Assembly (NCBI GenBank): GCA_964474085.1
Contig: CAYYRJ010000009.1
Location: forward strand, 13,570 to 77,569
Reading direction: 5' to 3'
Source of the DNA: an uncultured Planctomycetales bacterium
Lineage (GTDB): Bacteria; Omnitrophota; Gorgyraeia; Zapsychrales; JANLHA01
DNA length: 64,000 nt
Shown piece after piece: positions 1,358-63,900 of this stretch; position 1 is the stretch's first letter; every line of letters starts with the position of its first letter. The position numbers were made by a program, and so were the translations under genes. Under the pieces are notes generated by a model that saw only the letters and a program-made list of their open reading frames with translations, searched no databases and was not told the DNA's origin.

Positions 1358-2874
1358 ACAAGCACCTTGGGTTCTAAAATCTTTCGTTTGAGTTTGATTT
1401 TTGTCGAGCGCAGCGTTTCTTCAACAGCAAGGTCTCCAAATTTTTTTTCGAGCAAATTTAAAAACTGCGGCGAAGTATGATACTGCATCCAGGCTTTATC
1501 CCTAAATTCCAAAACTTGATCGGCTGTTAAATATTTGGTCGGTAAAGGCTGAGCATTATAAGAATGTTGCGAAAATCCCGAATACGAATCCGGCAATTTC
1601 CATCCCGCCTTGCGCGCCTGTCCGTGCAGAGGACTGCCCGGATAAGCCATCGCCGAATAAAAGTTCGCTTCTTCCGTATTCATTTCAAGAGCTAAATCAA
1701 GCGTCATTTGCATGCTGGGAATATCATCTTCGGGAAGACCAAAGATATAATTGGCAATGACGTTAATATCGTGCGCCCGGATTTTTTTGACGACATCGCG
1801 GATGTCGACGTCTTCAAAACGGCCCTTGGTCACATCTTTACGCACGCGCGTGTTTCCGCTTTCAATGCCTAACGCCAGCCAATTGACACCGGCTTTTTTT
1901 AAAATGTCCAGATACTGTTCCTTGACCGTATCTACCCGCGAATAGCACCAAATATTAAATTTGTACCCTCGCTCAATGATCAGCTCACAAAGCTTCACAA
2001 AATGATTCGCGTTAAGGACAAACAGCTCGTCGGCGATTTTGATATTGGTAATTCCTTCATCAGCAAAGAAATCAAACTGCTTAATAATAAATTCCGGGTC
2101 CCAATAGCGGAAAACAGCGCTGCCGTCGGAGAATTCATTCTCCTGACGATTAATGATATTAATCATACAAAAAGAACATTTCATCGGACACCCTAAACTC
2201 GTATAAAGCGCGACAAAAGGCTGGCGCTTGATATGATTCGAATAGGAATGCCATAATGATGTCCGATAACGTTTCAAGGGCAACCGGTCCCAGGCAATGC
2301 CCGGAAGATCGTGGGGCAAGTTTTCTTTCGGCACAATCGGCGAAGGCGGATTCAAAATAATTTGGCCATCGGCCCGATACCCTAACCCTAAAACTTTATC
2401 GAGATTATCCTCAAGGTTAGTGCGAAGCAAATTTGAAATCGTATAGACCCCTTCGTTCTGGCAAACAAAATCAATATAACTGTGCCGCTCAAGAACTTCC
2501 CGCGGCAAAGCGGCGATATGCCCGCCGACAAAAAGGATTTTTGTTTCGGGAAGGTGCTTCTTGACAAGATCCGCTAAAGCAATCGCACCATCCATATTTT
2601 GAGAGCTCGCCGAAGGCTGCTGACCGTAAACAACAAAGCACGTCACTTTCGGATTAAGATCAGAAATATATTGAGTTGATTCAGCGTCGGAAAAAGAAAG
2701 CGCTTCGCTGTCTAAAATCGCAGCGCGAAAACCTTCTTTTAAACAGTGTGACGTCAACATGCCAGCCCAAATCGGCGGCTCAATGGCCGAATACACTGTA
2801 CTTAAATCCTGATAAACTTTATACGACGCATTCGCTTGGACAAAAAGAATATCGAGCTGTTTAAATGTTGGCAT
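1354..2874 (-). CDS. Class B (cobalamin-binding) radical SAM enzyme
   Basis: N-terminal B12-binding-like domain followed by a CPMKCSFC (CxxxCxxC) radical SAM cluster motif. 506 aa. Embedded in the nucleotide-sugar operon. Confidence 0.7.
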   Translation of the reverse strand: MPTFKQLDILFVQANASYKVYQDLSTVYSAIEPPIWAGMLTSHCLKEGFRAAILDSEALSFSDAESTQYISDLNPKVTCFVVYGQQPSASSQNMDGAIALADLVKKHLPETKILFVGGHIAALPREVLERHSYIDFVCQNEGVYTISNLLRTNLEDNLDKVLGLGYRADGQIILNPPSPIVPKENLPHDLPGIAWDRLPLKRYRTSLWHSYSNHIKRQPFVALYTSLGCPMKCSFCMINIINRQENEFSDGSAVFRYWDPEFIIKQFDFFADEGITNIKIADELFVLNANHFVKLCELIIERGYKFNIWCYSRVDTVKEQYLDILKKAGVNWLALGIESGNTRVRKDVTKGRFEDVDIRDVVKKIRAHDINVIANYIFGLPEDDIPSMQMTLDLALEMNTEEANFYSAMAYPGSPLHGQARKAGWKLPDSYSGFSQHSYNAQPLPTKYLTADQVLEFRDKAWMQYHTSPQFLNLLEKKFGDLAVEETLRSTKIKLKRKILEPKVLV

Positions 2875-3793
2875 ATTGGTTCCTTTTAATGATCTGATAC
2901 GCTTTAACCAACTCTGTAATTCCCGCCGCTAATGATACCTCAGGCTTAAATCCGGTTTTTTCAATCTTGTCATTGCTGACAATATAATCGCGCTTATCCG
3001 GATCTTCACCGATGGTCGCCTCAACGAAATAAAAATCTTTGACCTGCTTTTGGATTTCTTGGCAAAGCCCAAGCTTGCTGATATTCGCATCACTTAATCC
3101 GACGTTGTAAGCCTGATTTTTCATCTTGTCAAAATTGTGAAGGCTATGGCTAAACGCTTTGGCCACGTCGCGCACATGAATAAAGTTGCGATTAAAATGC
3201 GCTTCAAACAAAACAACAAACCGGTCATACACGGCGCGATAGACAAAATCATTGACGAGCAAATCCAAACGCATCCGAGGCGAAACGCCGAAAGCCGTCG
3301 CCAAACGCAAAGTGATCCCGTTTCCGGCCGCAAGAATCGCTTGCTCAGCTTCGACCTTAAGCTTTCCGTAAAGCGAGATTGGCCTAAGCGGCGTTTCTTC
3401 GGTGCAATGCTTACCCTTTTCGCCGATGCCATAACCGCTGTTGGTCGTCGGAAAAATAACCATCTGATCTTTACTGCGCAATTGCAAAATCATGGTGACC
3501 GCATCCAACAAAATCGACTGCGCACCAACCGGGTCCTTGGCGCACAATGGCGCCCCTGTCAAGCACGCCAGCGGAAAAATCGCGTCGGCATCCTTGAGAA
3601 GCCTGGTCATCAAATTTTTGTCGCGCGTATCTCCTCGGACAATTGTCAATTTAGGATGATAACAGACGTCTAAAAGCGACGTTTGGTTATACATAAAATT
3701 ATCGAGCGCAACAACCTCATGGCCTTCTACCAAAAATCGCGGAATCATCACAGAACCCAAGTACCCGGCCGCGCCGGTAATTAAAATTTTCAT
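2861..3793 (-). CDS. NAD-dependent nucleoside-diphosphate-sugar epimerase/dehydratase (SDR family)
   Basis: ITGAAGYLGS Rossmann motif and YGKLK (YxxxK) catalytic motif. Confidence 0.75.
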   Translation of the reverse strand: MKILITGAAGYLGSVMIPRFLVEGHEVVALDNFMYNQTSLLDVCYHPKLTIVRGDTRDKNLMTRLLKDADAIFPLACLTGAPLCAKDPVGAQSILLDAVTMILQLRSKDQMVIFPTTNSGYGIGEKGKHCTEETPLRPISLYGKLKVEAEQAILAAGNGITLRLATAFGVSPRMRLDLLVNDFVYRAVYDRFVVLFEAHFNRNFIHVRDVAKAFSHSLHNFDKMKNQAYNVGLSDANISKLGLCQEIQKQVKDFYFVEATIGEDPDKRDYIVSNDKIEKTGFKPEVSLAAGITELVKAYQIIKRNQYANI

Positions 3794-3842
3794 AAAACAA
3801 TATCCTTTCTTAACATTCTTACTTTAATAATAATTTTATGGT

Positions 3843-3955
3843 TCGCTATAAGCCCTTCGGCTCAAAGGAACGGTCCCTGGTTGATGTCCCGCCTAACGGC
3901 GGGAGAAAATCAGGGCTGCGTTCAATTCGCCTTTAGGCTTATAGCAAACCAAGCA
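3843..3955. repeat. Family-4 structured repeat, copy a
   Basis: Conserved core cgaattgaacgcagccc.gattttctcccgccgttaggcggga..atc.acc.gggaccgttc..ttgagcc, shared with 63901-64000 in reverse complement. Closing stem gctataagcc/ggcttatagc is unique to this copy. Confidence 0.75.
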
Positions 3956-3972
3956 CCCCCAGATCACATCCA

Positions 3973-4878
3973 TTAAATCGTCCGGTTAATTCCTTCTTTT
4001 AATCCCACCTTCGGTTTCCAACCCAACGCTTTGATGCGGCTGCTGTCTAAAAGTTTTCGCATCGCTCCGTTGGGTTTAGAAGAATCAAAAACAATCTTTC
4101 CCTCATACTCAAGGGCAGAAGCAATCAATTTTGCCAAATCTTTTATCGCAATATCTTCGCCAACCCCGACATTGATCAACTCTTGGCTCTCGTAATTTTC
4201 CATCAAAAAAACACACGCACTCGCAAAATCTTCGCTAAACAAAAACTCGCGTTTAGGTTTTCCCGTTCCCCAAAGTGTTACGGACTTTTCATTCTTGGCG
4301 ACGGCCTGCGAAAATTTTCCTATCAGCGCGCCCAAAACATGGCTGTTTTCGGCATCCGTATCTGCCGCCGGCCCATAAAGGGTCGCCGGAACCATGGCAA
4401 TGGCGTTAAACCCGTATTGCCGGCGATACGCGCGGCACATTTCAACACCCGCAATTTTAGCGACCGCATAAGGCTGGCTCGTCGCCTCCAGAGCGCCGGT
4501 CAAAAAATATTCTTCTTTGATCGGTTGGGGAGAATTCTTCGGATAAACGCAGGAGCTGGCGATATACAGAAGTTTTTTTACTTTGGCTTTGTAAGCTGTG
4601 TGAATGATATTGTTTTGACTTTGCAGATTTGCGTAAATAAACTCCGCGCAAAATTCCTGATTGGCCTTAATCCCGCCGGAAAGCGTGGAAGCTAAAAAAA
4701 CATATTGCGGTTTAACTTTTTTAAAAAAACTTTCAACCTGCCGCTGATTAAAAACATCCCACTTCTCAGGCCCGGCGGAAATCACATTTTTAAAGCCTTG
4801 GCTGGTTAAATAATCATAAAGAGAATGTTCAACGATGTCGTTGTGTCCGACGATGAGAATACGCGATTGCTTTTTCAT
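3973..4878 (-). CDS. GDP-L-fucose synthase (Fcl/GMER)-like 3,5-epimerase/4-reductase, probable GDP-(deoxy)heptose reductase
   Basis: Aligns along its full length to Fcl (ASSCVYPK, YAVAK catalytic Ser/Tyr/Lys). The N-terminal dinucleotide loop is VGHNDIVEHSL instead of GHRGMVGSA. Confidence 0.65.
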   Translation of the reverse strand: MKKQSRILIVGHNDIVEHSLYDYLTSQGFKNVISAGPEKWDVFNQRQVESFFKKVKPQYVFLASTLSGGIKANQEFCAEFIYANLQSQNNIIHTAYKAKVKKLLYIASSCVYPKNSPQPIKEEYFLTGALEATSQPYAVAKIAGVEMCRAYRRQYGFNAIAMVPATLYGPAADTDAENSHVLGALIGKFSQAVAKNEKSVTLWGTGKPKREFLFSEDFASACVFLMENYESQELINVGVGEDIAIKDLAKLIASALEYEGKIVFDSSKPNGAMRKLLDSSRIKALGWKPKVGLKEGINRTI

Positions 4879-5421: not shown

Positions 5422-6054
5422 TCAAAATTTGATAAGTTTCCCCAACCCCGAATGCGGATAGCCGTTGACGTATTTAAAATAAATAATTTTTGCTTCGTAT
5501 TTAGTGCCTTTAAACCACGGGTCTGGACTGCCCCAAACTTCACGGGTATTAGTCATCACGCTGACCCCATTATCGCAAACGATAAACTTGACCGGCAAAT
5601 CAAAGTTATAGGCATATTTAACCGCTTCGAAGAAAATGCCTGTTTCCGAGGACATTTCTCCGCAAAAAAGAAACGCACAGCCCTTTTTATTCTGGTTTTT
5701 AAGCGCCCAGGCGACTCCCGTGGCTGTTCCCATAAGACTGCCAACGATGCCGGAACACAAAACGTTATACTCCGGGAAACACAGCGAAATACTTTTTCCC
5801 TCGACAATCGCTTGCTTGACCATATCGCGCGGCACACCTTTAAGCAAAGCCAATTCATGCGAATCCCAAAAGCCAAACACATAATCGTCATCGCCAATAT
5901 TTTCTTCACGAAAAATCCGGATCAGCTCATCCTCGCGGCCAGCGCGCAAATGGACCGGAGCACGGATCGCACCGGTCGCAAAAATTTCAGCAATTTCCTG
6001 TTCAAATTTTATAATGTCGTCTTTGGTCAATTGTGTTTTCATGATGGGGGTCAT
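5422..6054 (-). CDS. ThDP-dependent enzyme, PP-domain subunit (E1-alpha / transketolase-N-like, minimal)
   Basis: ThDP-binding region GSLMGTATGVAWAL...CGEMSSETGIFFEA...FIVCDNGVSVMT resembles the E1-alpha GDG...N motif. 210 aa. Confidence 0.55.
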   Translation of the reverse strand: MTPIMKTQLTKDDIIKFEQEIAEIFATGAIRAPVHLRAGREDELIRIFREENIGDDDYVFGFWDSHELALLKGVPRDMVKQAIVEGKSISLCFPEYNVLCSGIVGSLMGTATGVAWALKNQNKKGCAFLFCGEMSSETGIFFEAVKYAYNFDLPVKFIVCDNGVSVMTNTREVWGSPDPWFKGTKYEAKIIYFKYVNGYPHSGLGKLIKF

Positions 6055-7050: not shown

Positions 7051-7064
7051 AAAAAACCCTTCTA

Positions 7065-7100
7065 AACTCCCCCTCCCCCCTCTTTAGATAAAGAGGGGGA
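7065..7100 (-). terminator. GC-rich hairpin between the dehydrogenase and UXS genes (possible intra-operon attenuator or processing site)
   Basis: Perfect 10-bp stem cccccctcttt/aaagaggggg with a 5-nt loop. The T-run on the minus strand lies about 20 nt further 3', so it is not a textbook intrinsic terminator. Confidence 0.3.
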
Positions 7101-7118
7101 TTAAGGGGGCATTTGAAA

Positions 7119-9785: not shown

Positions 9786-11891
9786 TTATCGCAACCCTGT
9801 CCCGGCTTTGACGCGGTTAAACCCTGAATTAAAATCAATGGCGACATCCGGAAATTCTTTAAGCGTAAAAACAAGCCAGATCGCATCTCCCTCAGTGGCC
9901 TTGTGATTAAAACTTAACTTCATATCCCATTCGTGAAGATCCCGAACAATCGCATACTGCTGCTCCTTATTGTGTCCGCGGTCTTCATCCCAACGCTGAT
10001 AAATTTCGAAATACCACTTTTGATTAATCCGGTAATTTAATTGACTGGTAATCTGATCATCCACCGCACGGTCAAAACGCTTGCCAAAGCTCAAAGACCA
10101 TTTATTCCCGGGATCATTAAAATAAATATCAAAATTCGAAGAACTGATGTGGTCTTTAATTGTGTCATAATTCGTCTCCGCATAAAACGTCACCCATTTA
10201 TTAGGCTTCAAATCCGTCTTAGTCGTCACATTATTAAAGCCGCCTTTGCGCCTATCTTCCTTAAGATAAAAATCCGACGAGACTAACACCCGCGCAAGAT
10301 CAGCGCTTTTGCCGTTGCGCTTTGTCTGCAGCTTGTTTTCAAAGCCAAACGTCATCCCATGACTGCGCGTTAAACTGTCGATGGCATCAAATTGCACCAG
10401 CTTGGAGGATTCAATGCTCGGGTCGTGCGTATAAAAATAAGCCACCGACGGAGTAATCACATGGCGCAAACGATTAATGTCCAAATTCAAGAAATTCGTT
10501 TTTACATCATACACGCGGAAAAATTTTGTGCTGACATTCGCGCCGGTCTTAAAAATCCCGCGCACCGTATTGTTGTCCGTTTTATCAAGCGTCTTTGAAT
10601 AAAACGTTTGCTCTCCGCCGACAAAAGGACGAATCTCAAAGAATTTAATTTTAAACGGATACGAAATCTCATTGTCCGTGTCAAAACGCATTGTTTCATA
10701 ACGATGCGCACTGGGAACAGGCTCAAGTTTGGCAAGATTTGAATAAGTCGTATTATTTTTCCAATAAAAACCGCTCTCCAAAATTTTGCGGCCCGGCAAA
10801 AGATAATTGATTTCCGGCAAACGGTCAATAGCCGACGTAAAACGATTCACACGAACATCAGCTCGCAAACTCATTGTTCCGGCTTTCGAAAAACCACGCG
10901 TCAGAAGAAAATACGTCGGCGGGTTCGTGTCCTGATCATACTCTCTTTTAAAAAAATCTTTTAAAAATTCAGCATCGCTGATTTTGTAATACTGCCAAAT
11001 AGCATGCGTGGATTTGTCAATGTTCCATTTATTGCGCCACTCGCCCTTAAAACGTTCCTTCTCGATGATCGGAGTGCCGTTCTCCTTGTTAAAATCAAAA
11101 AAGAACTTCCTGTCACTCAAACGTTCTTGGGTATAATAAATTTTCATAAACCCGTTTCCAAACCGCGTGTCATTATAGTTAAAATCCGCGCCTTCCCCAA
11201 AACCTCGTCGACTGCGATTGTCAAGATGCAAAACGGTGTTCACATGATCGTTCCAGTAATGGCGCCATTTCGTAAGCACAAAAGCGCCCCAATCCTTCGA
11301 ATACCCCGGCGTAATAATAAACATCGGCTCTTTGTGTTTTAAGTCCTGCGTATAGCGCGGCAGAAAAAAAACCGGGACTTTTCCAAAGACGATTGACAAG
11401 TTGCGCGCGGTCGCTTTGTCGCCCTGAAAAATATCGACCTTCCGCGAACGCAGCTTAAAATGCGGATGGTCCAAATCGCACGTCGTGATATATCCGTCTT
11501 TAAGAATAATATGATTTTCGCCTTCTTTCGAAATTTGTCGGCCGGCGCCATAAAAAGGGTCTGAGGTGACATGTGCCTGGACAAAATCACCTTTCATCGT
11601 CGCAAAATTATAAATCAATTTTTCGCCGGTTAACCGTGAACCATCGCGCAAAAGAACAACATGCCCCTGAGCTATCCCAATATTTTGCGAGCGGTCAAAT
11701 TCCAAAGAGTCACACGACAGCGTCACGCCATCCCGCTTGACAACGACATTGCCGGTTGCGGTTACTTTTGTGTCGGTGACAGAATACTGCATCTGGTCCC
11801 CATTGATTTCGACAGGGGTTGCTTGCTCTTGGGCAAAGCCTGGCATCACAAAGACGAGGGAAAAATAAAAAATTAAAAAAATACGTTTCAT
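9786..11891 (-). CDS. lptD: LPS-assembly outer-membrane protein LptD (OstA family)
   Basis: Signal peptide, N-terminal OstA-like domain (GNVVVKRDGVTLSCDSLEFD...GHVVLLRDGSRLTGEKLIYN) and a long C-terminal beta-barrel-like region. 701 aa. Confidence 0.7.
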   Translation of the reverse strand: MKRIFLIFYFSLVFVMPGFAQEQATPVEINGDQMQYSVTDTKVTATGNVVVKRDGVTLSCDSLEFDRSQNIGIAQGHVVLLRDGSRLTGEKLIYNFATMKGDFVQAHVTSDPFYGAGRQISKEGENHIILKDGYITTCDLDHPHFKLRSRKVDIFQGDKATARNLSIVFGKVPVFFLPRYTQDLKHKEPMFIITPGYSKDWGAFVLTKWRHYWNDHVNTVLHLDNRSRRGFGEGADFNYNDTRFGNGFMKIYYTQERLSDRKFFFDFNKENGTPIIEKERFKGEWRNKWNIDKSTHAIWQYYKISDAEFLKDFFKREYDQDTNPPTYFLLTRGFSKAGTMSLRADVRVNRFTSAIDRLPEINYLLPGRKILESGFYWKNNTTYSNLAKLEPVPSAHRYETMRFDTDNEISYPFKIKFFEIRPFVGGEQTFYSKTLDKTDNNTVRGIFKTGANVSTKFFRVYDVKTNFLNLDINRLRHVITPSVAYFYTHDPSIESSKLVQFDAIDSLTRSHGMTFGFENKLQTKRNGKSADLARVLVSSDFYLKEDRRKGGFNNVTTKTDLKPNKWVTFYAETNYDTIKDHISSSNFDIYFNDPGNKWSLSFGKRFDRAVDDQITSQLNYRINQKWYFEIYQRWDEDRGHNKEQQYAIVRDLHEWDMKLSFNHKATEGDAIWLVFTLKEFPDVAIDFNSGFNRVKAGTGLR

Positions 11892-12823
11892 CTGTTTTTT
11901 TCTACGCCTTGACTTAACAAAACCTGCGCACCGATAATGCCTGCATCATCCCCGAGTTTGGCGCAAACGATTTTGACCATCTTCGCCTGCACTTTCATCG
12001 CCCGTTTTTGTATGACCGCATTGATCGTCGAAAAAAGAAACCGGCGATTATTTGAAACCCCGCCGCCGATAATAATCAAAGGCGGATTCAACAAATTCAC
12101 AACTCCCACCAAACCATTGCCGATATGCGTCGCTGTTTCTTCAAAAAACTTGAGCGCCCTTTTATCTTTCTTCAGAGCCAAAGCATAAACGTCCGGGATC
12201 GTTAAAGTTTTATCGCCAAAAATTGCCGCGATTTTTTCTAAAAGTGGACCATTGCCCACGTAACGTTCAAAACATCCATACCCGCCGCAATTGCAGGAGG
12301 GCCCCTCTTCATTAATCGGCATATGCCCAATTTCGCCGGCCACAAACCCTTCTCCCCGATACATTTTACCGCCTAAAATAAGTCCGCCGCCGACTCCCGT
12401 CCCTAAAGTCATACACAAAAGATCATTTTTTCCGATCCCCGCGCCAAACTTCCATTCGCCTAACGTAATCATGTTGACATCATTTTCCAGAACTGTCGGC
12501 TTATGAAATTCTTTTTCAAAAATTTTGCGCAAATAAATATTTTTCCATCCCGGGACATTCGGCAAAAAAATAACAAGGCCTTTGAAAGGATCGACCGCCC
12601 CGGGAAGGCCGATGCCAATGCCCGAAATTTGAGAGTAAGTTATTTGAGCGTCTTTGAGTAATGTATGGATATAAGTGAAGATGGCCGAAATAAGCTGCTG
12701 TGGATTACGATTGTAAGGCTTTGTGGGCATGACACTTCGCGCTAAAATCTTGCCTCTGGCATCAACGATACCAAGCTTAACGTTTGTTCCGCCAACATCG
12801 ATGCCTAAACTTAAATTTTTCAT
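11888..12823 (-). CDS. ROK-family sugar kinase (glucokinase / N-acetylglucosamine kinase-like)
   Basis: LGIDVGGTNVKLGIV N-terminus and the CNCGGYGCFERY zinc motif of ROK kinases. Confidence 0.75.
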   Translation of the reverse strand: MKNLSLGIDVGGTNVKLGIVDARGKILARSVMPTKPYNRNPQQLISAIFTYIHTLLKDAQITYSQISGIGIGLPGAVDPFKGLVIFLPNVPGWKNIYLRKIFEKEFHKPTVLENDVNMITLGEWKFGAGIGKNDLLCMTLGTGVGGGLILGGKMYRGEGFVAGEIGHMPINEEGPSCNCGGYGCFERYVGNGPLLEKIAAIFGDKTLTIPDVYALALKKDKRALKFFEETATHIGNGLVGVVNLLNPPLIIIGGGVSNNRRFLFSTINAVIQKRAMKVQAKMVKIVCAKLGDDAGIIGAQVLLSQGVEKNR

Positions 12824-12842
12824 GTCCCGTCCTATATTATCA

Positions 12843-12923
12843 GCCGATGCAGTCGTCCTTTTAAGGCGAATAGCGCCATAGAGGCGCCAAGCAATTGAGC
12901 CGAAAAAGGACGATTGCGTCGGC
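12843..12923. repeat. Family-2 structured repeat, copy a
   Basis: Core ttttaaggcgaatagcgccatagaggcgccaagcaattgagccgaaaaa enclosed by a roughly 21-bp stem gccgatgcagtcgtccttttt / aaaaaggacgattgcgtcggc with two G-T mismatches. Confidence 0.8.
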
Positions 12924-12936
12924 TAAACAATCATCT

Positions 12937-13060
12937 AGAGCGGCCCTTTGGGCCCTACGGTTTTGCGTAGGCCAAGCAGAAGCTTGGCTAATGCAAAATC
13001 CGGGTTGATTCTAACCTAAACGACAGGGGCTTTCAAGCTGATTAACCCGGATTTTGCATT
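12937..13060. repeat. Partial family-1 copy (3' module) with its own closing inverted repeat
   Basis: gcggccctttgggc...ggccaagcagaagcttggctaatgcaaaatccgggtt matches the 3' third of family 1. It is followed by aacccggattttgcatta, the exact complement of taatgcaaaatccgggtt. Confidence 0.7.
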
Positions 13061-13094
13061 AAAAAATGAAATACAAAATTTGGGATTAAAGCGA

Positions 13095-14111
13095 TTATTT
13101 GCCATAAACCCCAAAAGCACAAACCCGGTTGCGCCCGCCCTTTTTGGCGCGATACAAAGCCCAATCCGCTTTATCGATAAGTTCATTGACTTTTTTGCCG
13201 TCCTGCGGATAAACCGCAATCCCGATGCTGACGGTTGCCTTAGTCGACGTGTCAAATGCTTTGATCGTTGCCTGTTCAACGGCGAAACGGATACGCTCTG
13301 CAACACTCCCTGCAGAGACAAAATCCGTATCCGGCAACACAACGCAAAATTCCTCTCCGCCAAAGCGGCCGATAATATCAATTTCACGAATATTCGCTTT
13401 AATGATGGAAGCGATTTCCCGCAAAATCTGATCTCCCGTCAAATGCCCGTACTGATCATTAAAATGTTTAAAAAAATCAACGTCCACCATCAAAAACGCC
13501 ATGTGCGTCTTGTAAATCTGCGCTCGATTGCGCTCCTCTTCAAAGCGTTCGAGGACATACCGACGAGTATGAACCTCCGTCAAACTGTCGGTGATCGCAA
13601 GCCGTTCAATGTCTTGATAAAGCCGCACACGCCGAAGCGCCAAAGCAAATTGATTGGCCAAAATCACAACTTTTTCCTGTTGGCTTTCAGCCACATCACT
13701 TAAAGCCAAAACTCCAAGCTTGCGTCGCTGACCGCTCAAAGTCAGAAGCAGATACCCTCCCAGTTCTTTGTCCTTAATTTGCTCTTGCGCCAGCGGGTCG
13801 AGCAAGAGGCAATCGCCAAAATGCACACTTTCTCGGAGCTTGACTTTAAAGGCATAAAAAGTTTTTTCTTCCGAAAAACTTTTGGTCATCTCGCGCGTCA
13901 GATCATAAAGCGTAAAAATTTCTGCAACTTCGGTTTCCAAAACTTTTCGCCGCTCATCCAAACCTTTTTTGATCCGCAACAATTCTTCATGCTGGCTCTT
14001 AAAAAGCACAAGAGCATCCGTTTCTCGCCGTAAGATGTTTGCAATCGCCCAGCGCACGACAAAAATCACCACGGCTGTAAAAACAAAAAGTAAACTCACC
14101 ATAAAAATCAT
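13095..14111 (-). CDS. Diguanylate cyclase (GGDEF domain) with N-terminal TM and coiled-coil region
   Basis: RFGGEEFCVVLPDT GG(D/E)EF active-site motif and RYVLERFEEE upstream motifs. Confidence 0.8.
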   Translation of the reverse strand: MIFMVSLLFVFTAVVIFVVRWAIANILRRETDALVLFKSQHEELLRIKKGLDERRKVLETEVAEIFTLYDLTREMTKSFSEEKTFYAFKVKLRESVHFGDCLLLDPLAQEQIKDKELGGYLLLTLSGQRRKLGVLALSDVAESQQEKVVILANQFALALRRVRLYQDIERLAITDSLTEVHTRRYVLERFEEERNRAQIYKTHMAFLMVDVDFFKHFNDQYGHLTGDQILREIASIIKANIREIDIIGRFGGEEFCVVLPDTDFVSAGSVAERIRFAVEQATIKAFDTSTKATVSIGIAVYPQDGKKVNELIDKADWALYRAKKGGRNRVCAFGVYGK

Positions 14112-15461: not shown

Positions 15462-15690
15462 ATAAGGTTTAAAAAAAGACCCGTATTTTAACCCGGCTTT
15501 TGCATTAGCCTCGCTCCAACGAGGCCAAGCAAAAGCCGCCCAAAGGGCCGCATGTCTCGACACCGTCGAGACGTGCGGGGTTAACCTTGTCCCTGCGGGA
15601 CAACCAAAGGCAAATTTTGCATTTCCATTTTTGTGCGCGACGGATCGTCGCGCACAAGGTTGTAATGCAAAATTTGGGTTTAAGAGCGAG
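15462..15690. repeat. Family-1 structured repeat, copy B (inverted relative to copy A)
   Basis: Its reverse complement aligns to 163-360 at about 89%. Substitutions in the nested stem are compensatory: cggCttttgc/gcaaaaGccg versus cggAttttgc/gcaaaaTccg, and gcctcg/cgaggc versus gccaagc/gcttggc. Confidence 0.8.
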
Positions 15691-22629: not shown

Positions 22630-22729
22630 TTCTCCTGAACTTGCCGCTTTGGGCATCCCTTTTTCGGCTCAATTGTTTGGCGCCTCTATGGCGCAATTCG
22701 CCTTAAAAGGGCTGCCCAAATCAGCAAGC
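22630..22729. repeat. Family-2 structured repeat, copy b (reverse orientation)
   Basis: Core ggctcaattgtttggcgcctctatggcgcaattcgcctt inside a stem cttgccgctttgggcatccctttt / aaaagggctgcccaaatcagcaag with 3 mismatches. Confidence 0.8.
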
Positions 22730-31831: not shown

Positions 31832-31940
31832 GTGCAAATTTTATTTACTGACTTGAGAAGTCCTTTTAAGGCGAATGGCGCCATAGAGGCGCAAAACAAT
31901 TGAGCCTAAAAGGACTTCCCAAGTCGGCTTAACTTGCACA
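31831..31940. repeat. Family-2 structured repeat, copy c
   Basis: Core ttttaaggcgaatggcgccatagaggcgcaaaacaattgagcctaaaa inside stem gacttgagaagtcctttt / aaaaggacttcccaagtc, extended by tgtgcaa...ttgcaca. Spans from the hflX ATG (31831) to the miaA stop. Confidence 0.8.
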
Positions 31941-33717: not shown

Positions 33718-33749
33718 TTTAAATTCAGGCCGCGCGGCCTGAATTTAAA
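33718..33749. terminator. Palindromic hairpin downstream of the metB-like gene
   Basis: tttaaattcaggccgcg/cgcggcctgaatttaaa forms a perfect 16-bp palindrome between convergently terminating transcription units. Confidence 0.45.
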
Positions 33750-34980: not shown

Positions 34981-35114
34981 TGATCTTTTGTCGGTTGTTA
35001 ACAAAGCCTTCGTCGCTCGAACAGTCCTCGCTCTAGTCGCTTACTCTTATTGAAAACTTTAGGTAAGCGCCTAGGCTGCGGAACTCGCTTTGGAAGGCAT
35101 TGTTAACAACCGAC
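34981..35114. repeat. Family-3 long-hairpin repeat, copy a (subfamily 1)
   Basis: Arms ccttcgtcgctcgaacagtcctcgc and ggctgcggaactcgctttggaagg flank an inner stem gtcgcttac/gtaagcgcc. Outer stem tcggttgttaacaa/ttgttaacaaccga is unique to this copy. Confidence 0.8.
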
Positions 35115-35119
35115 CAGAT

Positions 35120-35794
35120 CTATTTATTTGCCACAAAAACAAAACCATTCGCCTTGCCGCTTAAAGGGTCTACTGCCCTAGACGTCATTTTTTCTTTTTC
35201 TTCGGGCAAGCATTCCTCTTCACATTTAGCCACCAATTTCCACGTCGGTTTTGAACGATGATGCACCTTGGCCAGCGGCTCCTGGCCTAAAAAACAGCCC
35301 TTGGCAAAAGAGACAAAATCGGTTTCGCTGACATTAAGAAGCATTTCATCTTTATAATCAACGCCCAAAAGGGCCATATTATTTTTCAGACGAAAACGGG
35401 TAAATTCCTCGTCGCTAACCGAAGCTGGCAAGTCGTCGGCTGTCAAAACAAGCTGACCGCACTTTTGCGCAATGACAAACTCCGTCGGACTTGGGCGATA
35501 CGAGCCTTCCAAATCAAAATAGACAAACAAATTCTCCTGGCTGAGCACTGTCTTGCTTAAACGGGCAAAACGTTCCAAATGCAAAAGAACTGCAGGCAAA
35601 AATGCCTCTTCGATAACCAGCAAAAACTTTTCATCGCTGACGCGGACTTGGTCAAAAGTGGCAATGATACGGCCATGAATATTAACAAAAGCGTTTTGCG
35701 GTTTATCGAGCGAATTTGTCGTTAACCCGTTTAAAAATGCTTGCGGGCAAGGCGCGACACTTAATACTTTTTTTGTTGTTTTATAAAGACGCAT
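35120..35794 (-). CDS. YgfZ/GcvT-like folate-binding Fe-S cluster assembly/repair protein
   Basis: C-terminal KGCFLGQE matches the K-G-C-[FY]-x-G-Q-E signature of the YgfZ (COG0354) family. Confidence 0.6.
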   Translation of the reverse strand: MRLYKTTKKVLSVAPCPQAFLNGLTTNSLDKPQNAFVNIHGRIIATFDQVRVSDEKFLLVIEEAFLPAVLLHLERFARLSKTVLSQENLFVYFDLEGSYRPSPTEFVIAQKCGQLVLTADDLPASVSDEEFTRFRLKNNMALLGVDYKDEMLLNVSETDFVSFAKGCFLGQEPLAKVHHRSKPTWKLVAKCEEECLPEEKEKMTSRAVDPLSGKANGFVFVANK

Positions 35795-36572
35795 TTATTT
35801 GACCACAGGCTTTTAGATAATCGCGAATAATCTGTTTATGGTCAAAAGCAAAGTTGTACTTTAAAATTTTATCCGCGCTGATAATCTGCGCGCCCTTAGC
35901 ATCATCGCCGGATCGCAGCGTGCCTTTTCCCTGTGCCACAAAAACGGTCGCAATCGTCTGAAAGCGCGGATCCCGGCAAGGGTCGGAATAGGTGTGAAAT
36001 TGTTTTAAATTTTTTAACTCTAAATTTGTTTCTTCTTTCGTCTCGCGCACTGCGGCATGTTCAAGCGATTCACCGTTATCGACAAACCCGCCGGGCAAAG
36101 CAAACCCAAACGGCGGATTGGTCCGTTCAATGACAACGAGGCCGCCTTTATAATGGATAATAATGTCCACCGTCGAGTAGGGGCCGCAGCTTAAATCTTC
36201 CTGTACATGGCGAATATACCCATAAACTTGGCTTTCAAATAAAAGCAAAGTCTGTTTGTCTTCAACGGCCAAAACCATTGTCTTGATCGCCCCCGGATAA
36301 GCACGGCAAAAACGCAAAATTTCCTGTGCCAAAATTTTAGCCACTGCGATAGGCGGAAATTCTTCCTTTATCCCTACAGCGGGAAAAACAACTTTTGTTT
36401 TTTTCTCTCTCTTAGCTTTAATAAAAATATTTCGAAACGCCCGGCGCAGCGAAAGCTCCGTTGGCTTTCCTTTTATTAATGTCGAAATAAAAGATGGGTC
36501 TTTTGGAAACTTGAGGGCATCAGCTAAAACAATCTTAAACTCCGTGGCTTTGACTAACACTTTTCTCTCCAA
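35781..36572 (-). CDS. NUDIX hydrolase with an N-terminal domain of unknown function
   Basis: Nudix box GGFVDNGESLEHAAVRETKEETNLEL in the C-terminal half. Confidence 0.7.
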   Translation of the reverse strand: MERKVLVKATEFKIVLADALKFPKDPSFISTLIKGKPTELSLRRAFRNIFIKAKREKKTKVVFPAVGIKEEFPPIAVAKILAQEILRFCRAYPGAIKTMVLAVEDKQTLLLFESQVYGYIRHVQEDLSCGPYSTVDIIIHYKGGLVVIERTNPPFGFALPGGFVDNGESLEHAAVRETKEETNLELKNLKQFHTYSDPCRDPRFQTIATVFVAQGKGTLRSGDDAKGAQIISADKILKYNFAFDHKQIIRDYLKACGQINASL

Positions 36573-37992
36573 TCTCCCGCGCTAAGGCCAACGCCTGCTC
36601 TTTGGTTTTTACTTTTCCTGTCGCTTGCGCTTCTTCGACGGCTTTGAGAATTTTCCCAAACAAAGCCGAAGGTTTAAGCTTTAACTTTTTGATCAAGTCG
36701 TTTCCGTCGATCAAACGGACAAACGGTTTTTCTTTTTTGGCCGCAAAAAAACGACGGATAATTTCCAGACAAATTTTTTGATGATGTTCTTCATCCTCTT
36801 TCGTCGACAAAACTCCGCGCGTCGAACGCTGGTCAGCCATGGACAAAAGCGCAATCGACGCGGCTTCTTCTTTGGTGTCCCTCAAATAACGAAACCACGC
36901 TTTGTCACTGGGATTTTTAAAATTCGACAAGTAGCCCGGACGCAAATGCCAAAGGACCATATCTTCTAAAATGATCCGCTCCTTAGTCGAAAGTTTAAGG
37001 AGCTTGGCAACAGAGCGCACGATACCTTTACCGACATGTTCGTGCCCATGAAAAGACATGCGGTCTTTTTCTTTTTTGCGTGTCGCGGGCTTTCCGATAT
37101 CATGCAAAAGTGCGGCAAGCTTTAGAATTCCCCGTCGAGTACGGGTCCCGGCTAAAGGCTCATTGAGATACTCAATAATTTCCAAATTATTTTTATGTTC
37201 TTCCAAAACCTTTTCTAATTGCACGACGGTTTCCAAAGAATGCGGCCAGACGTCAAGATGATGATACCCACCTTGGGTTATGCCATACATCACAGTGATC
37301 TGCGGAATCACTTTTTTTAAAAGCCCGATCTTATCTAAAAGCGCCAGATTTTCGGCAGCAGAAGGCGATTGCAAAACTTTAAAAAGTTCATCTAAAATCC
37401 GCTCCCGGGCAACTTGACCAAGCAAGTCAGCGTCTTTTTTAATTTGCCCTAAAGTTTTCGTTTCAACATTAAACCCCAACTGCGCACGCAAACTAAACGC
37501 GCGCAAAAGCCGCAAAGGGTCTTCCACAAATATTTTGTTCCCAACCATGCGAATCCGTCGGGCTTTAAGATCTTTGAGAGCTCCGCAAAAATCTCGGACA
37601 ACTTCCGTAAAATTCTCTAAAAGGTCAAGGTCGTTGAGTTTAACGGTTAATGTATTGAGCGTAAAATCGCGGTGCAAAATGTCGGCTTTAAGGGTTGGCG
37701 CACGAAAATCCGCAAAATCATAGGTGGAAATTTTGCCCTGTTGTTTTTTGACAACACGCCCGCAGCCGCGCTCTTTGTCGAGCAGAACAAACGCGCCCTT
37801 GATCTGTTTGGCAAAAGTTTTCGAAAACGAAACCGCATTTTTTGCTAGGGCAAAGTCAAAGTCTTGGCCAGTTTTACCGACGAGCGCATCGCGCAAAAAG
37901 CCGCCGACCAAAAAAAGATCAACATTCTTTTGGCGGGCGAGTTTTTGCAAAATTACCAAATGAGGATATTCGGCCAAAGTTGGCATAGGCAA
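36535..37992 (-). CDS. cca: CCA-adding tRNA nucleotidyltransferase / poly(A) polymerase family with HD domain
   Basis: Pol-beta head LFLVGGFLRDALVGK...DFDFAL and an HD motif HDIGK. Confidence 0.8.
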   Translation of the reverse strand: MPMPTLAEYPHLVILQKLARQKNVDLFLVGGFLRDALVGKTGQDFDFALAKNAVSFSKTFAKQIKGAFVLLDKERGCGRVVKKQQGKISTYDFADFRAPTLKADILHRDFTLNTLTVKLNDLDLLENFTEVVRDFCGALKDLKARRIRMVGNKIFVEDPLRLLRAFSLRAQLGFNVETKTLGQIKKDADLLGQVARERILDELFKVLQSPSAAENLALLDKIGLLKKVIPQITVMYGITQGGYHHLDVWPHSLETVVQLEKVLEEHKNNLEIIEYLNEPLAGTRTRRGILKLAALLHDIGKPATRKKEKDRMSFHGHEHVGKGIVRSVAKLLKLSTKERIILEDMVLWHLRPGYLSNFKNPSDKAWFRYLRDTKEEAASIALLSMADQRSTRGVLSTKEDEEHHQKICLEIIRRFFAAKKEKPFVRLIDGNDLIKKLKLKPSALFGKILKAVEEAQATGKVKTKEQALALAREIGEKSVSQSHGV

Positions 37993-37997
37993 GAAAA

Positions 37998-38408
37998 TTA
38001 TTCGGTAGCGCTAAAAATAGAAGCTTTCTTTAAAACTTCCTCGTCGACAAAAATCGGCGCTTTGGCACGCACGGCAAGGGCAACGCCATCGGAAGGACGG
38101 GCGTCCACGGTTTTTATCTTGCCGTCTTTGTCTTTTAAAAGGATCTTGGCATGAAAAGTGCTGTTAACTAATTTATCAATAACCAGCGAATCAACTTTTG
38201 CGCCCAAACTGTCGATCGACAAAAACAATAGATCATGCGTCATCGGACGGGGCGTTTCGACGTTGGAGAGTTTCATCTTGATGCTGGAGGCCTCCAAAAA
38301 ACCTATGACAATAGGAAATTGCCGCTCGCCGTCTTTTTCCTTAAGGACAATGATCTGGTCCTGTCGTTTTTCATCAATAATAATTTTGCTTAATTCGACT
38401 TGTATCAT
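37998..38408 (-). CDS. Bifunctional nuclease (BFN/DUF151) domain protein
   Basis: RPSDGVALAVRAKAPIFV motif typical of the DUF151 family. 136 aa. Confidence 0.6.
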   Translation of the reverse strand: MIQVELSKIIIDEKRQDQIIVLKEKDGERQFPIVIGFLEASSIKMKLSNVETPRPMTHDLLFLSIDSLGAKVDSLVIDKLVNSTFHAKILLKDKDGKIKTVDARPSDGVALAVRAKAPIFVDEEVLKKASIFSATE

Positions 38409-38412
38409 ATCT

Positions 38413-38895
38413 TTAAACTCCTTTTTTCTTTAAGGAGGATTTTTCACGCTCCAAAATAACCTTAAGTTCATTCATAAACTGATTGACGTCGCGAAACTGC
38501 CGATAGACAGAAGCAAAACGCACATAAGCAACTTCGTCGAGCGAAGCAAGCTTTTCCATAATAATTTCGCCGATGGCCGTCGCGCTGACTTCACGCTCGT
38601 ATTTTTTTTGTATCGTTCTTTCAATCTCAGCTGTGATTTGTTCAATCTTATCGACGCTAATCGGGCGCTTTTCGCAAGCCTTGACCAAACCGGCAATGAT
38701 TTTTGTCCGGTCAAACGCCTGTCTGCGGTTATCGCGTTTGATCACCATCAGCGGCACTTGCTCGATGTATTCGTAGGTCGTAAAACGCTTCTGGCATTTG
38801 AGGCATTCCCGACGCCGGCGGATAGATTTTCCTTCCGCGCACAAACGCGAATCAACGACCTTGGTTTCCTTATAATGACAGGCGGGACATTTCAT
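38413..38895 (-). CDS. nrdR: Transcriptional repressor NrdR
   Basis: N-terminal zinc ribbon MKCPACHYKETKVVDSR...CLKC plus an ATP-cone. Confidence 0.9.
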   Translation of the reverse strand: MKCPACHYKETKVVDSRLCAEGKSIRRRRECLKCQKRFTTYEYIEQVPLMVIKRDNRRQAFDRTKIIAGLVKACEKRPISVDKIEQITAEIERTIQKKYEREVSATAIGEIIMEKLASLDEVAYVRFASVYRQFRDVNQFMNELKVILEREKSSLKKKGV

Positions 38896-38914: not shown

Positions 38915-39030
38915 AATGGCGGTTAGGGATGAGCTTCCAAAGCGAGTTCCGCAGCCTAGGCGCTTACCTAAAGCTCTCAATAAGGGTAAGCGACTAGTGC
39001 GAGGACTGTTTGAGCGACGAAGGTCACTCC
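38915..39030. repeat. Family-3 long-hairpin repeat, copy b (subfamily 1, reverse orientation)
   Basis: Core nearly identical to copy a in reverse complement. Unique outer stem aatggcggttagg/cctaaccgccat. Confidence 0.8.
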
Positions 39031-39045
39031 TAACCGCCATCGCAA

Positions 39046-40307: not shown

Positions 40308-40390
40308 TCCGTAAATTACTGATTAAGGAAGTCCTTTTTAGGCTCAATTGTTTCGCGCCTCTATGGCGCTATTCGCCTTAAAAGGACTTC
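40308..40390. repeat. Family-2 structured repeat, copy d (reverse orientation)
   Basis: Core ggctcaattgtttcgcgcctctatggcgctattcgcctt inside a perfect 20-bp stem ctgattaaggaagtccttttt / aaaaggacttccttaatcag. Confidence 0.85.
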
Positions 40391-40434
40391 CTTAATCAGC
40401 TTAAACCTTACCTTATCAATTCATCGTTTTAAAT

Positions 40435-41995: not shown

Positions 41996-42123
41996 GAGGC
42001 TATTGCGGTAACCTTCGTCGCTCGAACAGTCCTCGCGCACACCGCTTACTCTAAATTTAAAAGACAAACAGGTAAGCGGCGTGGCTGCGGAACTCGCTTG
42101 GGAAGGTCACCGCAACAGCCTCG
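41996..42123. repeat. Family-3 long-hairpin repeat, copy c (subfamily 2)
   Basis: Same conserved arms. Inner stem is cacaccgcttac/gtaagcggcgtg. Unique outer stem gaggctattgcggtaacc/ggtcaccgcaacagcctc. Confidence 0.8.
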
Positions 42124-42138
42124 CAATTAAAAATTCCC

Positions 42139-42612
42139 TTAATTCTCCAAAACCCGCTTGCGCTGATCGTCGGAAAAGTCCTCAAGCTTTTTGGCTAGCC
42201 CTTGATCAGCCAAAGCCAAAATCCGTATCGCCAAAAGCGCCGCATTCTTAGCCCCGTTTTTTCCGATGGCAACAGCGCCGACCGGCACTCCGGGAGGCAT
42301 TTGCACCGTCGAAAGAAGTGAATCCAAACCATTTAAAACAGATTCAATCGGAACACCTAAAACCGGCAGGTTCGTATGCGCCGCGACAACGCCAGCCAAG
42401 GCCGCTGCACCGCCGGCACCGCAAATAATAACCTGTATCCCTTTTGACTTTGCGTTTTCGGCATATGCGGCTGTCTCACGCGGAGTCCGATGCGCAGACA
42501 AAACCTTGATTTCATAGCCGACTCCAAAATCTTTCAAAATCTTAGCCGCCTCTTCCATCGTCGGAAGATCTGACTTGCTGCCCATCATGAGTGCAACCTG
42601 AATTTTTTGCAT
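42139..42612 (-). CDS. purE: N5-carboxyaminoimidazole ribonucleotide mutase
   Basis: Start reset to ATG at 42610-42612 with an AAGGAGG RBS ([16 protein letters not shown]...). Confidence 0.9.
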
Positions 42613-42625
42613 CTGATATCCTCCT

Positions 42626-43945
42626 TTACCGGCCGATTGCATCTGCGGATCTTAACGAATCTCTTTTTACCGCTTTGGCGGCAATATCTCGGCGGAAAAA
42701 CATGTGGTCAAACTTTATTTTTTCAACGGCTATATAAACTTTTTTGATCGCTTCCTTAATATTAGTGCCTAAACTAACAACGCCCAAAACCCGCCCCCCT
42801 GCTGTAACAATCTTATCCCCATCTTTTTTGGTCCCAGCGTGAAAAACAAAAGTATCTTTTTCTTCTGTCGCTGCGGGCAAACCTTTAATCTCGTAACCTG
42901 TTTGATATTTCCCAGGATAACCGCCAGAGCTCATCACAACGCAAACACAAGGACGCTTGTCCCATGCAAGTTCAATTTCATTGAGTCGACCTTCGCAGCT
43001 GGCAAGAATCAGTTCGATAAGATCGTTTTTTAGGCGCGGCAAAACCGCCTGCGTTTCCGGATCGCCAAAACGGACATTGTACTCCAAAACCTGCGGCCCC
43101 TGCGAGGTTATCATAAGTCCCGCGTAAAGGACCCCGCGAAACGGCATGCCCTCACGGGCCATCCCGCGCACCGTCGGCTCAATGACGCGCGCTTCAATTT
43201 TTCGCAAAAGCGTGTCAGTCACAACCGGTGCCGGACAGTAGGCGCCCATGCCGCCGGTGTTAGGCCCCAAATCATCGTCAAAAATTCTTTTATGATCTTG
43301 CGCAGATTCCAAAATCAGATAATCTTCGCCGTCACAAATCGCCAGAATTGAAACCTCTTCGCCCACCAAAAAGTCTTCAATAACAATCTTTGTCCCCGCC
43401 TGTGCAAAAATTTTATCTTTCATCATCTGTTCAACGGCGACCAACGCCTCCTGCAAAGTATTACAAATGACAACGCCTTTCCCAGCGGCCAACCCGTCGG
43501 CTTTAACAACGAGCGGAAATTGCGCGTGATTTAAAAACGCGCAAGCATCTTCAATACGATCAAAATTCATAAATGTTGCCGTCGGGATATTGCAGCGGAG
43601 CATAAATTCTTTAGAAAAAGTCTTGCTGCCCTCCAGCTGTGCGGCCATCTGGCTTGGGCCAAAAATCTTGAGTTTCGCTTTTTCGAACTGATCGACAATC
43701 CCCGCCGTCAAAGGCGCTTCAGGGCCCACCACCGTCAAATCAATCTTTTCTTTTTTTGCAAATTTTAAAAGACCGGCGATATCATCGCTGTTAATGTCAA
43801 CGCACAAAGCGCAGGATGCGATCCCCGCATTGCCCGGAGCACAATACAACTTTTCAAGCCGCGGACTCTGAGCAAGCTTCCAAGCTAAAGCATGCTCGCG
43901 AGCACCAGAACCGATGAGCAGAACTTTTAATTTTTTTTCCATCAT
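42626..43945 (-). CDS. purD: Phosphoribosylamine--glycine ligase
   Basis: ATP-grasp fold. N-terminus [17 protein letters not shown]. Confidence 0.9.
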
Positions 43946-44952: not shown

Positions 44953-45084
44953 GAGTGGTTGTTAAAGTATCCTTCCTAAGCGAGTTCCGCAGCCACGCCG
45001 CTTACCTGTATGCCTTTAAAATTCAGAGCAAGTGGCGTGCGCGAGGACTGTTTGAGCTAAGGAAGGATGCTTTAACAGCCACTC
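44953..45084. repeat. Family-3 long-hairpin repeat, copy d (subfamily 2, reverse orientation)
   Basis: Conserved arms in reverse complement. Unique outer stem gtggttgttaaagtatccttcc/ggaaggatgctttaacagccac, about 22 bp with two T/C differences. Confidence 0.8.
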
Positions 45085-56773: not shown

Positions 56774-56805
56774 TTTTGATTTTTTTATTTCTAAAAAAAT
56801 CAAAA
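56774..56805. promoter_or_regulatory. 13-bp A/T-rich inverted repeat (putative operator or bent-DNA element)
   Basis: ttttgattttttt-atttct-aaaaaaatcaaaa in the AT-rich divergent region upstream of the leader ORF promoter. Confidence 0.3.
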
Positions 56806-63883: not shown

Positions 63884-63900
63884 GTCTTCTTGAGAATTTA

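Follow-up and report, generated by a model that had tools for sequence, protein, structure and literature searches.

The window analysed here, 64,000 nt of contig CAYYRJ010000009.1 (GenBank assembly GCA_964474085.1), comes from the Omnitrophota, uncultured bacteria known almost only from metagenome bins and whose non-coding DNA has, to our knowledge, not been described before. Near its start lies a minus-strand sugar operon in which a 179-nt gap separates the gene of a GDP-L-fucose synthase (Fcl) homologue from that of an NAD-dependent epimerase/dehydratase, while the other genes of this run overlap or sit a few bases apart. An earlier note made from the letters of this DNA had reported that an element splits the Fcl-like reductase from the epimerase in a packed operon, and this proved correct: the gap is occupied by an imperfect palindrome of about 113 bp (3839-3951), hereafter copy A (winA), which recurs in the window, inverted, at 63892-64000 upstream of mnmA, as copy B (winB). 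The fcl stop codon is 21 nt upstream (mRNA sense) of the closing stem of copy A (3951 to 3973), and the ribosome-binding region of the epimerase gene, AAGAAAGGA (about 3803-3811), is kept in all relatives and undisturbed by the element. The closest named relatives of the flanking proteins belong to Omnitrophota. The features of the two loci are the following:

2861 to 3793, minus strand: NAD-dependent epimerase/dehydratase gene, 310 amino acids, downstream of copy A
3973 to 4878, minus strand: GDP-L-fucose synthase (Fcl) homologue, 301 amino acids, upstream of copy A in mRNA terms
3839 to 3951, minus strand: copy A, whole palindromic element (covariance-model match R1 3836-3954, 131 bits), arms 81 nt apart
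3839 to 3854, unstranded: first arm tggttcgctataagcc of the copy A closing stem P1, partner of 3936-3951
3936 to 3951, unstranded: second arm ggcttatagcaaacca of P1
3859 to 3931, minus strand: conserved core of copy A, 73 nt
3859-3861 / 3929-3931: P2 of copy A, ggc/gcc
3868-3872 / 3919-3923: P3 of copy A, gaacg/cgttc
3875-3879 / 3911-3915: P4 of copy A, ccctg/caggg
3875 to 3915, unstranded: P4 region with the T-A (A) versus C-G (B) swap, enclosing P5 TCCCGCC-loop-GGCGGGA (pair 69/110: UA in 6 sequences, CG in 3)
3887-3904: P5 hairpin of copy A
62768 to 63868, minus strand: mnmA, with copy B directly upstream, between it and a bioD-bioA fusion gene (bioDA) beyond the window end
63892 to 64000, plus strand: copy B (covariance-model match 107.5 bits), its 3' side cut by the window end
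63892-63910 and 63990-64000: arms of copy B, the second clipped by the window end
63915-63985: core of copy B
63931-63935 / 63966-63970: P4 of copy B, ccccg/cgggg

Exactly two matches to the 24-mer CCCGCCTAACGGCGGGAGAAAATC exist in the window (3888-3911 on the plus strand, 63935-63958 on the minus strand), with 0 expected from 100 shuffles, and the cores of the two copies (71-73 nt) are identical at 67 of 73 positions (92%). The sense orientation of copy A (GGCGAATTG...GAGCC) is on the minus strand, which is the strand of the operon mRNA, and P2 is flanked on it by an internal loop GA...GA; the sense strand of copy B is the plus strand, i.e. antisense to mnmA. Whichever strand of either copy is folded, the prediction is a single rod-like hairpin of -57 to -62 kcal/mol (z = -6.8 to -7.6). 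The closing stems, tggttcgctataagcc/ggcttatagcaaacca in copy A and agggtaagtcc/ggacttgccct in copy B, are both absent elsewhere in the window, and P1 of copy A has one non-Watson-Crick position, G.U on the minus strand and C.A on the plus strand. The earlier note had thus correctly recognised two copies, the second inverted, with copy-specific closing stems, and the T-A to C-G swap that it had reported in the inner stem is a true double change (ccctg/caggg versus ccccg/cgggg). It was also right that the apical hairpin is the same in both copies, but the perfect stem of this hairpin has 7 bp (TCCCGCC-GTTA-GGCGGGA) and not 9, the longer figure having arisen because two strands had been merged.

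The search for further copies covered the 64 kb of the source genome and windows of at most 20 kb from relatives, whose contigs or bins are labelled L0xx below. A 19-mer scan of one genome per species gave 13 matches, of which only L003-L006, three Candidatus Omnitrophota bins and one bin labelled Planctomycetales, were true copies. Syntenic contigs obtained via Fcl and MnmA homologues added family-4 copies (the family of copies A and B) in L021, L026, L027/L028, L029 and L056/L057, and short variants in L022 and L004. Five assemblies of Omnitrophota type contain family-4 copies beyond those of the window. JGI metagenome contigs scanned with GAACGGTCCC-N25-45-GGGCTGCGTTC yielded 6 matches, all of them chance occurrences in unrelated G+C-rich DNA with no element architecture; viral contigs scanned with a 17-mer yielded 21 matches, none with the left-half motif, which were treated as chance; and literature searches on Omnitrophota repeats and on core sequence strings brought up nothing relevant. 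The element is described here as specific to a lineage of Candidatus Omnitrophota.

At the fcl site, the relative closest to the window (L026, Fcl 99% identical) carries an element identical to copy A, which is therefore not an assembly artefact. The element is present in the same orientation in L027 (Fcl 87%) and L021/L005 (80%), with homologous flanks and homologous but diverged closing stems, while L029 (82%) has a flipped family-4 copy with different closing stems, L025 (88%) and L022 (78%) have other palindromes, and L030 (74%) and L020 (83%) have no element, only a 50-nt spacer and a 20-nt spacer without dyad, respectively. A similar diversity is seen at the bioDA|mnmA site, where the window and L056 (MnmA 88%) carry the element in one orientation, L006 (95%) and L004 (86%, truncated copy) carry it in the other, L054/L055 (93%) are empty with a 3-nt spacer, and L053 (99%) has a different G-rich palindrome instead of copy B. 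L053 also differs from the window in the N-terminus of MnmA and the C-terminus of BioDA. Orthologous sites are thus polymorphic for presence and absence, as is typical of mobile repeats, with empty sites in L020, L030 and L054/L055. Given this turnover at both sites, the element can be dispensed with, varies between near-identical strains and has no fixed link to the sugar operon; its copy between fcl and the epimerase gene is an insertion that is specific to a lineage and dispensable there.

The bioDA|mnmA site also informs on the origin of a closing stem. In the empty site, BioDA ends ...SIEKLEQE*, coded by ATTGAAAAATTAGAACAAGAGTGA, and the mnmA ATG follows 3 nt later; in the filled sites, BioDA reads ...AIEKLGQ (L006) or ...IENLGQ and then continues into the element. 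The left closing arm of L006, AAGTTAGGACAAT, is native bioDA coding sequence, and its right arm, ATTGTCCTAACTT, located beyond the core, is the reverse complement of the left arm, the empty site having nothing there. The same pattern, each time with its own lineage-specific bases, is found in L056 (AGAATTTAGGACAAA / TTTGTCCTAAATTCT) and in the window, where GGACTTACCCTAAATTCTC stands opposite AGGGCAAGTCC at the window edge; the closing-stem hairpin at this site is AAGTTAGGACAA/TTGTCCTAACTT. Since the left arm is native and the right arm its reverse complement, the closing stem here duplicates the target flank in inverted orientation. Beside the palindrome, none of 9 copies showed a direct target duplication. 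In L006 (7350-7389) and L056 (9880-9928), the bioD-bioA fusion open reading frame (ORF) extends past its native end and has its stop codon within the core of the element, the new C-terminal tails of BioDA being SLNGELNAALN (L006) and TSRLKGTVPGGSST (L056).

Two further rearrangements were observed. The core of L006 is inverted relative to those of L056 and winB while the arms have not moved (identity 73-78% when reversed, 57% direct). In L021, a 25-nt nested hairpin, TAGATTCGCCTTCGGCGAACTATTC (10945-10969), lies inside the family-4 core; it is composed of copies, both inverted and direct, of the GGCGAA end of the element itself and is missing from the near-identical L005 copy.

Copies A and B are members of a superfamily of imperfect-palindrome repeats, represented in the window by 10 copies, each with a conserved core and its own closing stem:

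Family 4: 3839-3951, 63892-64000
Family 3: 34990-35114, 38916-39040, 42006-42126, 44953-45084
Family 2: 12842-12924, 22640-22728, 31850-31925, 40319-40399

Superfamily orientation is balanced (5:5), though nearly all genes sit on the minus strand. The architecture has three layers, namely two conserved end modules, a variable inner hairpin and a closing stem of 16-23 bp that is unique to each copy; the eight elements of families 2 and 3 have their own closing stems of 19-29 bp. The end modules, 5' GGCGAATTGAACGCAGCC and 3' GGACCGTTCATTGAGCC followed by GAAG, are common to families 2, 3 and 4, with the consensus GCGA(A/G)TT..CGCAGCC on the 5' side and GGAC(C/T)GTT..GAGC, then GAAG, on the 3' side, families 3 and 4 having been aligned and family 2 assessed by comparison. 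The covariance model of family 4 also matches one family-2 copy (E about 1e-4), and two GA dinucleotides beside GGC/GCC are preserved in families 2 and 4. The 11-mer AAGGCGAATTG, which the earlier note had reported as shared with family 2, is indeed common to family 4 and the family-2 copy at about 22702; given the shared end modules and the covariance-model match, it is the visible tip of a real homology, so that the hint of a common origin was right and even understated, families 2-4 sharing both end modules. Within families 2 and 3 orientation alternates along the window; over all copies, 7 of 9 neighbours differ in orientation (p about 0.09, not significant). The family-3 copies form inverted pairs around the gene blocks 35120-38895 and 42139-44943. 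A native origin of the arms of the family-2 copy 12842-12924, compared with L021/L022, was not relied on, the similarity extending over only 8-9 nt.

A covariance model was built from 8 family-4 copies and then used to align 9. In this alignment 98.2% of the 280 stem cells are standard pairs and 21 of the 32 pairs change on both sides, cell counts that overstate the number of independent events, several of the aligned copies being orthologous. None of 500 shuffles reached the observed pairing, and partners slid by 1-3 columns were paired at 30-55% only. The C-G form of P4 is found in winB, L029, L056 and the L004 fragment and the T-A form in winA, L027, L005/L021, L003 and L006, and the swap may represent one ancestral double change dividing two subfamilies. 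Covariation also affects P2 (GGC/GCC to AGC/GCT in L029), P3 (GAACG/CGTTC to GGACG/CGTCC in L022) and P5, for which four different stems exist. The additional copies therefore confirm the covariation first noticed in two copies. However, the P4 swap, although real, cannot be taken alone as a sign of RNA-level selection, since template switching yields such changes too (PMC8794818, PMC8604942). The compensatory pairing above shuffled and slid controls is as expected of structured RNAs in general, and does not separate RNA selection from maintenance of a palindrome at the DNA level.

Two properties of the core go beyond pairing. P2-P4 and the internal loops hardly vary in sequence, whereas P1 and P5 change freely, and the cores of winA and L021 are 93% identical where third codon positions of fcl are 52% identical; the core of resident orthologous copies is thus far more conserved than neutral sites. 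In addition, 13 G.U against 2 A.C pairs are counted on the GGCGAAT strand (11 versus 2 in the aligned set, plus two G.U counted by hand in L056), and this excess persists in winB, L003 and L056, where the sense strand of the element lies antisense to the genes beside it. Since the G.U pairs are one-sided even in antisense copies, one folded strand seems to matter, independently of host transcription.

The element was then compared with known classes. Rfam gave 0 matches over the whole window at gathering thresholds, and the best permissive match over 3780-3990 reached 17.7 bits against a threshold of 37.4 (DUF3800-V, E = 0.45). ARAGORN found no tRNA or tmRNA genes in the window. No terminator-like site on either strand overlaps 3839-3951, the sequence after the closing stem being ATAAAATT in copy A and AAATTCTC in copy B, with no T run, and a promoter scan found no promoter-like site in or near copy A. 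With a balanced orientation and no such promoter, the element lacks both the consistent orientation and the own promoter that functional RNAs generally have. As for MITEs (miniature inverted-repeat transposable elements), GGCGAATTGAACG / CGTTCATTGAGCC, the conserved inverted modules, lie inside the element, and its outermost 16-23 bp are copy-unique instead of forming terminal inverted repeats, and the flank at bioDA|mnmA is duplicated in inverted and not in direct sense; no pair of end modules spaced by a gene, as in a parent element, was found in the window or in the windows of relatives. Repetitive extragenic palindromic (REP) units measure 20-40 nt and end in a tag, GTAG or CGTC; the unit described here has about 113 nt, and GTAG is found only in winB, L003 and L029 (3 of 9 copies), in an internal loop, the others having GTTG, GTCG, GTGG, GTAA or GCGG. 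A Y1 transposase domain, as in the RAYT proteins that mobilise REP sequences, was found in none of the annotated genes of the syntenic loci examined.

An integron attC site was rejected, the layout being reversed, with a conserved centre and a variable base where attC has conserved R''/R' boxes at the stem base. GCCTAAC/GTTAGGC is confined to the apical loop of a subset of copies and shows no conservation (loops GTTA, GAAA, TTTA, TGAG), and the neighbours of the element are housekeeping genes, unlike integron cassette arrays beside an integrase. A kink-turn for GGC-GA...GA-GCC was likewise rejected on inspection: the GA dinucleotides of family 4 face each other across a symmetric 5+5 loop with no 3-nt bulge.

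Taken together, our results lead us to favour, with moderate confidence, a REP/MITE-like dispersed palindrome whose outer stem is made and maintained locally by fold-back or template-switch synthesis and whose core is kept by selection for recognition by a partner. The element is known in kind, as a bacterial interspersed palindromic repeat, and is set apart by lacking the defining features of both MITEs and REP sequences. Template switching at inverted repeats creates reverse-complement repeats and perfect stems, fixes stem mismatches by multi-base 'compensatory' changes, expands arms and inverts spacers reversibly (PMC8794818, PMC8604942, PMC13100816, PMC7202029), and all four signatures, i.e. 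stem creation, mismatch fixing, arm expansion and spacer inversion, are present here. We thus propose that DNA synthesis primed on the palindromic core, by fold-back or template switch, would copy the flank in inverted sense to give the closing stem; the same synthesis would repair arm mismatches, generating 'compensatory' changes without selection, and could invert the core between the arms. Selection would hold the core sequence so that a partner, either a mobilising enzyme or a host protein, can recognise one strand in its folded hairpin form. Transcribed together with the sugar operon, the element would form a hairpin of about -62 kcal/mol, located upstream of an intact ribosome-binding site. 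REP elements are known from established work to stabilise mRNA. The operon hairpin is probably, by analogy with REP, enterobacterial repetitive intergenic consensus (ERIC) and Correia elements, a passive decay barrier or a substrate of double-strand RNase (PMC2229807, PMC2649163) and no dedicated regulator.

Several points weigh against this proposal. Resident orthologous cores are so strongly conserved that a function at host level fits them better than selfish DNA does, and the bias of G.U pairs towards the element's own sense strand is predicted neither by simple mRNA-level selection nor by strand-neutral template switching. No transposase or parent element that could carry the core to new sites was seen in the 64 kb analysed from this genome. 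The flank-derived stems come from one site, whose three lineages may share a single event, no native arm is identifiable at the fcl site, and a hairpin may already have existed in the ancestor of the filled sites.

The earlier note had suggested that copy A may serve as an internal processing, termination or stability element of the sugar operon, and a dedicated cis-regulatory RNA, whose hairpin would terminate, process or stabilise the fcl-epimerase transcript under selection on its stems at the RNA level, does draw on the mRNA-sense orientation of the element inside a packed operon with the downstream ribosome-binding site intact, on a very stable fold (-62 kcal/mol, z = -6.8), on the covariation of the stems and on the 93% conservation of the orthologous copies in L027 and L021. 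We nevertheless regard it as highly improbable: there is no U-tract and no terminator-like or promoter-like site, the same element stands upstream of mnmA in the opposite orientation, nine related copies are spread over the 64 kb beside unrelated genes and in both orientations, and relatives with the identical operon have no copy (L020, L030), a flipped copy (L029) or another palindrome (L022, L025) at the same spot. Another explanation is a conserved structured module with a protein partner, acting as a small RNA or as a hairpin in single-stranded DNA, in which P2-P4 and the GA/GA loop would be the recognition surface and the closing and apical stems would need only to pair. It agrees with the conservation of sequence, and not just of pairing, in P2-P4 and the internal loops while P1 and P5 are free to vary, with a core constraint far above neutral in resident orthologous copies, with the strand polarity (13 G.U versus 2 A.C on the GGCGAAT strand, including copies antisense to flanking genes) and with the GA dinucleotides kept beside GGC/GCC in families 2 and 4. 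Against it, a conserved upstream promoter is impossible because flanks are unique to each copy, no promoter-like site lies in or near copy A, Rfam has no match, no partner protein was identified, and no individual copy can be essential because copies are lost or replaced between 99%-identical strains; we therefore consider this explanation unlikely, if less so than an operon regulator.

It is also conceivable that a mobile core inserts into the loops of pre-existing hairpins, the closing stems being older host hairpins. REP families found inside larger palindromes (PMC3733652) and YPAL targets that span or adjoin dyad symmetry (PMC2229807) are precedents, insertion sequences directed at REP loops would be comparable, and the closing stems, of which each copy has its own, pair perfectly or almost so. 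However, the empty bioDA|mnmA site (L054/L055) has a 3-nt spacer and no hairpin, native sequence giving one arm only, and the empty fcl site of L020 is 20 nt long with no dyad. Moreover, the long core-less intergenic palindromes of the window are limited to 33718-33749, with GC-rich arms, and an A/T-only hairpin at 56774-56805, against 10 palindromes with cores; with a single core-less palindrome with GC-rich arms, ready-made hairpins are unlikely as a general insertion route, and this alternative appears to us very doubtful. A bolder version of the favoured proposal is that the core is a self-propagating palindrome module, which spreads and grows with no conventional cut-and-paste transposase, draws its closing stem from the target flank ('inverted target duplication') and is read, as a strand-specific hairpin in single-stranded DNA or RNA, by a dedicated protein; we advance it only tentatively, as a rather unlikely possibility.

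Among known systems, ERIC elements, or IRU, the 127-bp imperfect palindromes of enterobacteria, resemble the Omnitrophota element in size, in forming a rod-like hairpin when transcribed, in their location in transcribed intergenic spacers inside operons, in occurring in either orientation, in having variants with internal insertions and in a sequence conserved across species. A passage of PMC2229807, citing De Gregorio 2005, reports that ERIC alters mRNA stability in Yersinia in an orientation-dependent manner. ERIC elements differ in that their inverted repeats are terminal, with TA ends, and are accompanied by a direct duplication of the target (PMC2229807, Table 1), whereas in the Omnitrophota element the conserved inverted modules are internal, no direct duplication was found, the outermost stem is copy-unique and there is no sequence similarity to ERIC. 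The RAYT-mobilised REP/REPIN sequences are also intergenic and palindromic, tolerate G.T pairs in their stems and persist long-term by largely vertical descent; one strand is presumed to be recognised as a hairpin, and some REP families lie within larger palindromes (PMC3733652, PMC3116915). Besides their size and end tag, REP sequences differ in that the palindromes enclosing them follow a consensus, while here the enclosing stems are copy-unique and no RAYT gene was seen in the syntenic loci. YPAL (RU-2) of Yersinia shares internal inverted repeats, a composition that is not A+T-rich, targets in or beside dyad symmetry and filled and empty sites among close relatives (PMC2229807), but gives direct target duplications of 3-26 bp where here the duplicated flank is inverted. 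Finally, quasipalindrome template switching produces arm homogenisation, stem creation or expansion and spacer inversion, all three patterns being seen here (PMC8794818, PMC8604942, PMC13100816, PMC7202029); it is a mutational mechanism and no element family, and explains neither the spread of the core nor its conservation.

Other repeats were noticed at these loci. A MITE-like family with terminal inverted repeats AACCCGGATTTTGCATTA is present at 165-362, 12958-13064 and 15487-15687 of the window and at L027:1789-1880, one copy being inserted beside the family-4 element in L027; two inverted copies (165-321 and 15527-15683, 92% complementary) flank the whole 15-kb sugar/lipopolysaccharide gene block. 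A G-rich palindrome (CCCCCTC...GAGGGGG) lies at 7051-7118, in the spacer between UDP-glucose dehydrogenase and epimerase genes, and one of the same kind at L053:6322-6436. A perfect 36-nt palindrome, TTTAAATTCAGGCCGCGC/GCGCGGCCTGAATTTAAA, at 33718-33749 in a 117-nt spacer, is the sole long GC-containing hairpin of the window that lacks a repeat core. A further type of repeat, CATTGCGAGG...GACGAAGCAATC palindromes, is found in spacers of the same operon in relatives (L022:4813-4939, L022:9914-10000 and L030:2259-2354).

As for the genes, all but a few of the about 59 ORFs of the window (1-64000) are on the minus strand and the GC skew is negative throughout (cumulative -4.0), indicating that the whole window lies on one replichore with genes co-oriented with replication. 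A nucleotidyltransferase/HepT-like toxin-antitoxin pair is located within the sugar operon of L020 (7836-8461), L021 (8715-9334) and L025 (2150-2769), at a point corresponding to about 5540-5560 of the window, and is absent from the window, L022 and L030. A sigma-70-like promoter (TTGAAA, 17 nt, TAGAAT) upstream of a ROK-family gene is conserved in the window (12823-13095), L021 (1141-1275) and L022 (1679-1777); downstream of it, the 5' untranslated region in the window holds a family-1 fragment and a family-2 element.

For the biology of these bacteria, the superfamily contributes roughly one structured insert for every 6 kb of the window. These inserts disrupt translational coupling, the 3-nt bioDA-mnmA junction becoming one of roughly 115-140 nt with a strong hairpin, and they give proteins new C-terminal tails. 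Since they differ between 99%-identical strains, they are a main source of micro-diversity. The element also calls for caution in RNA discovery, as it combines textbook-quality covariation with a conserved core and yet behaves as a dispersed DNA palindrome, replication errors being able to give 'compensatory' changes. If flank-derived stems were general, palindrome growth by inverted target duplication would be documented in natural bacterial populations, and a self-propagating module, if real, would be a way of forming and maintaining repeats that has not been described for bacterial interspersed repeats.

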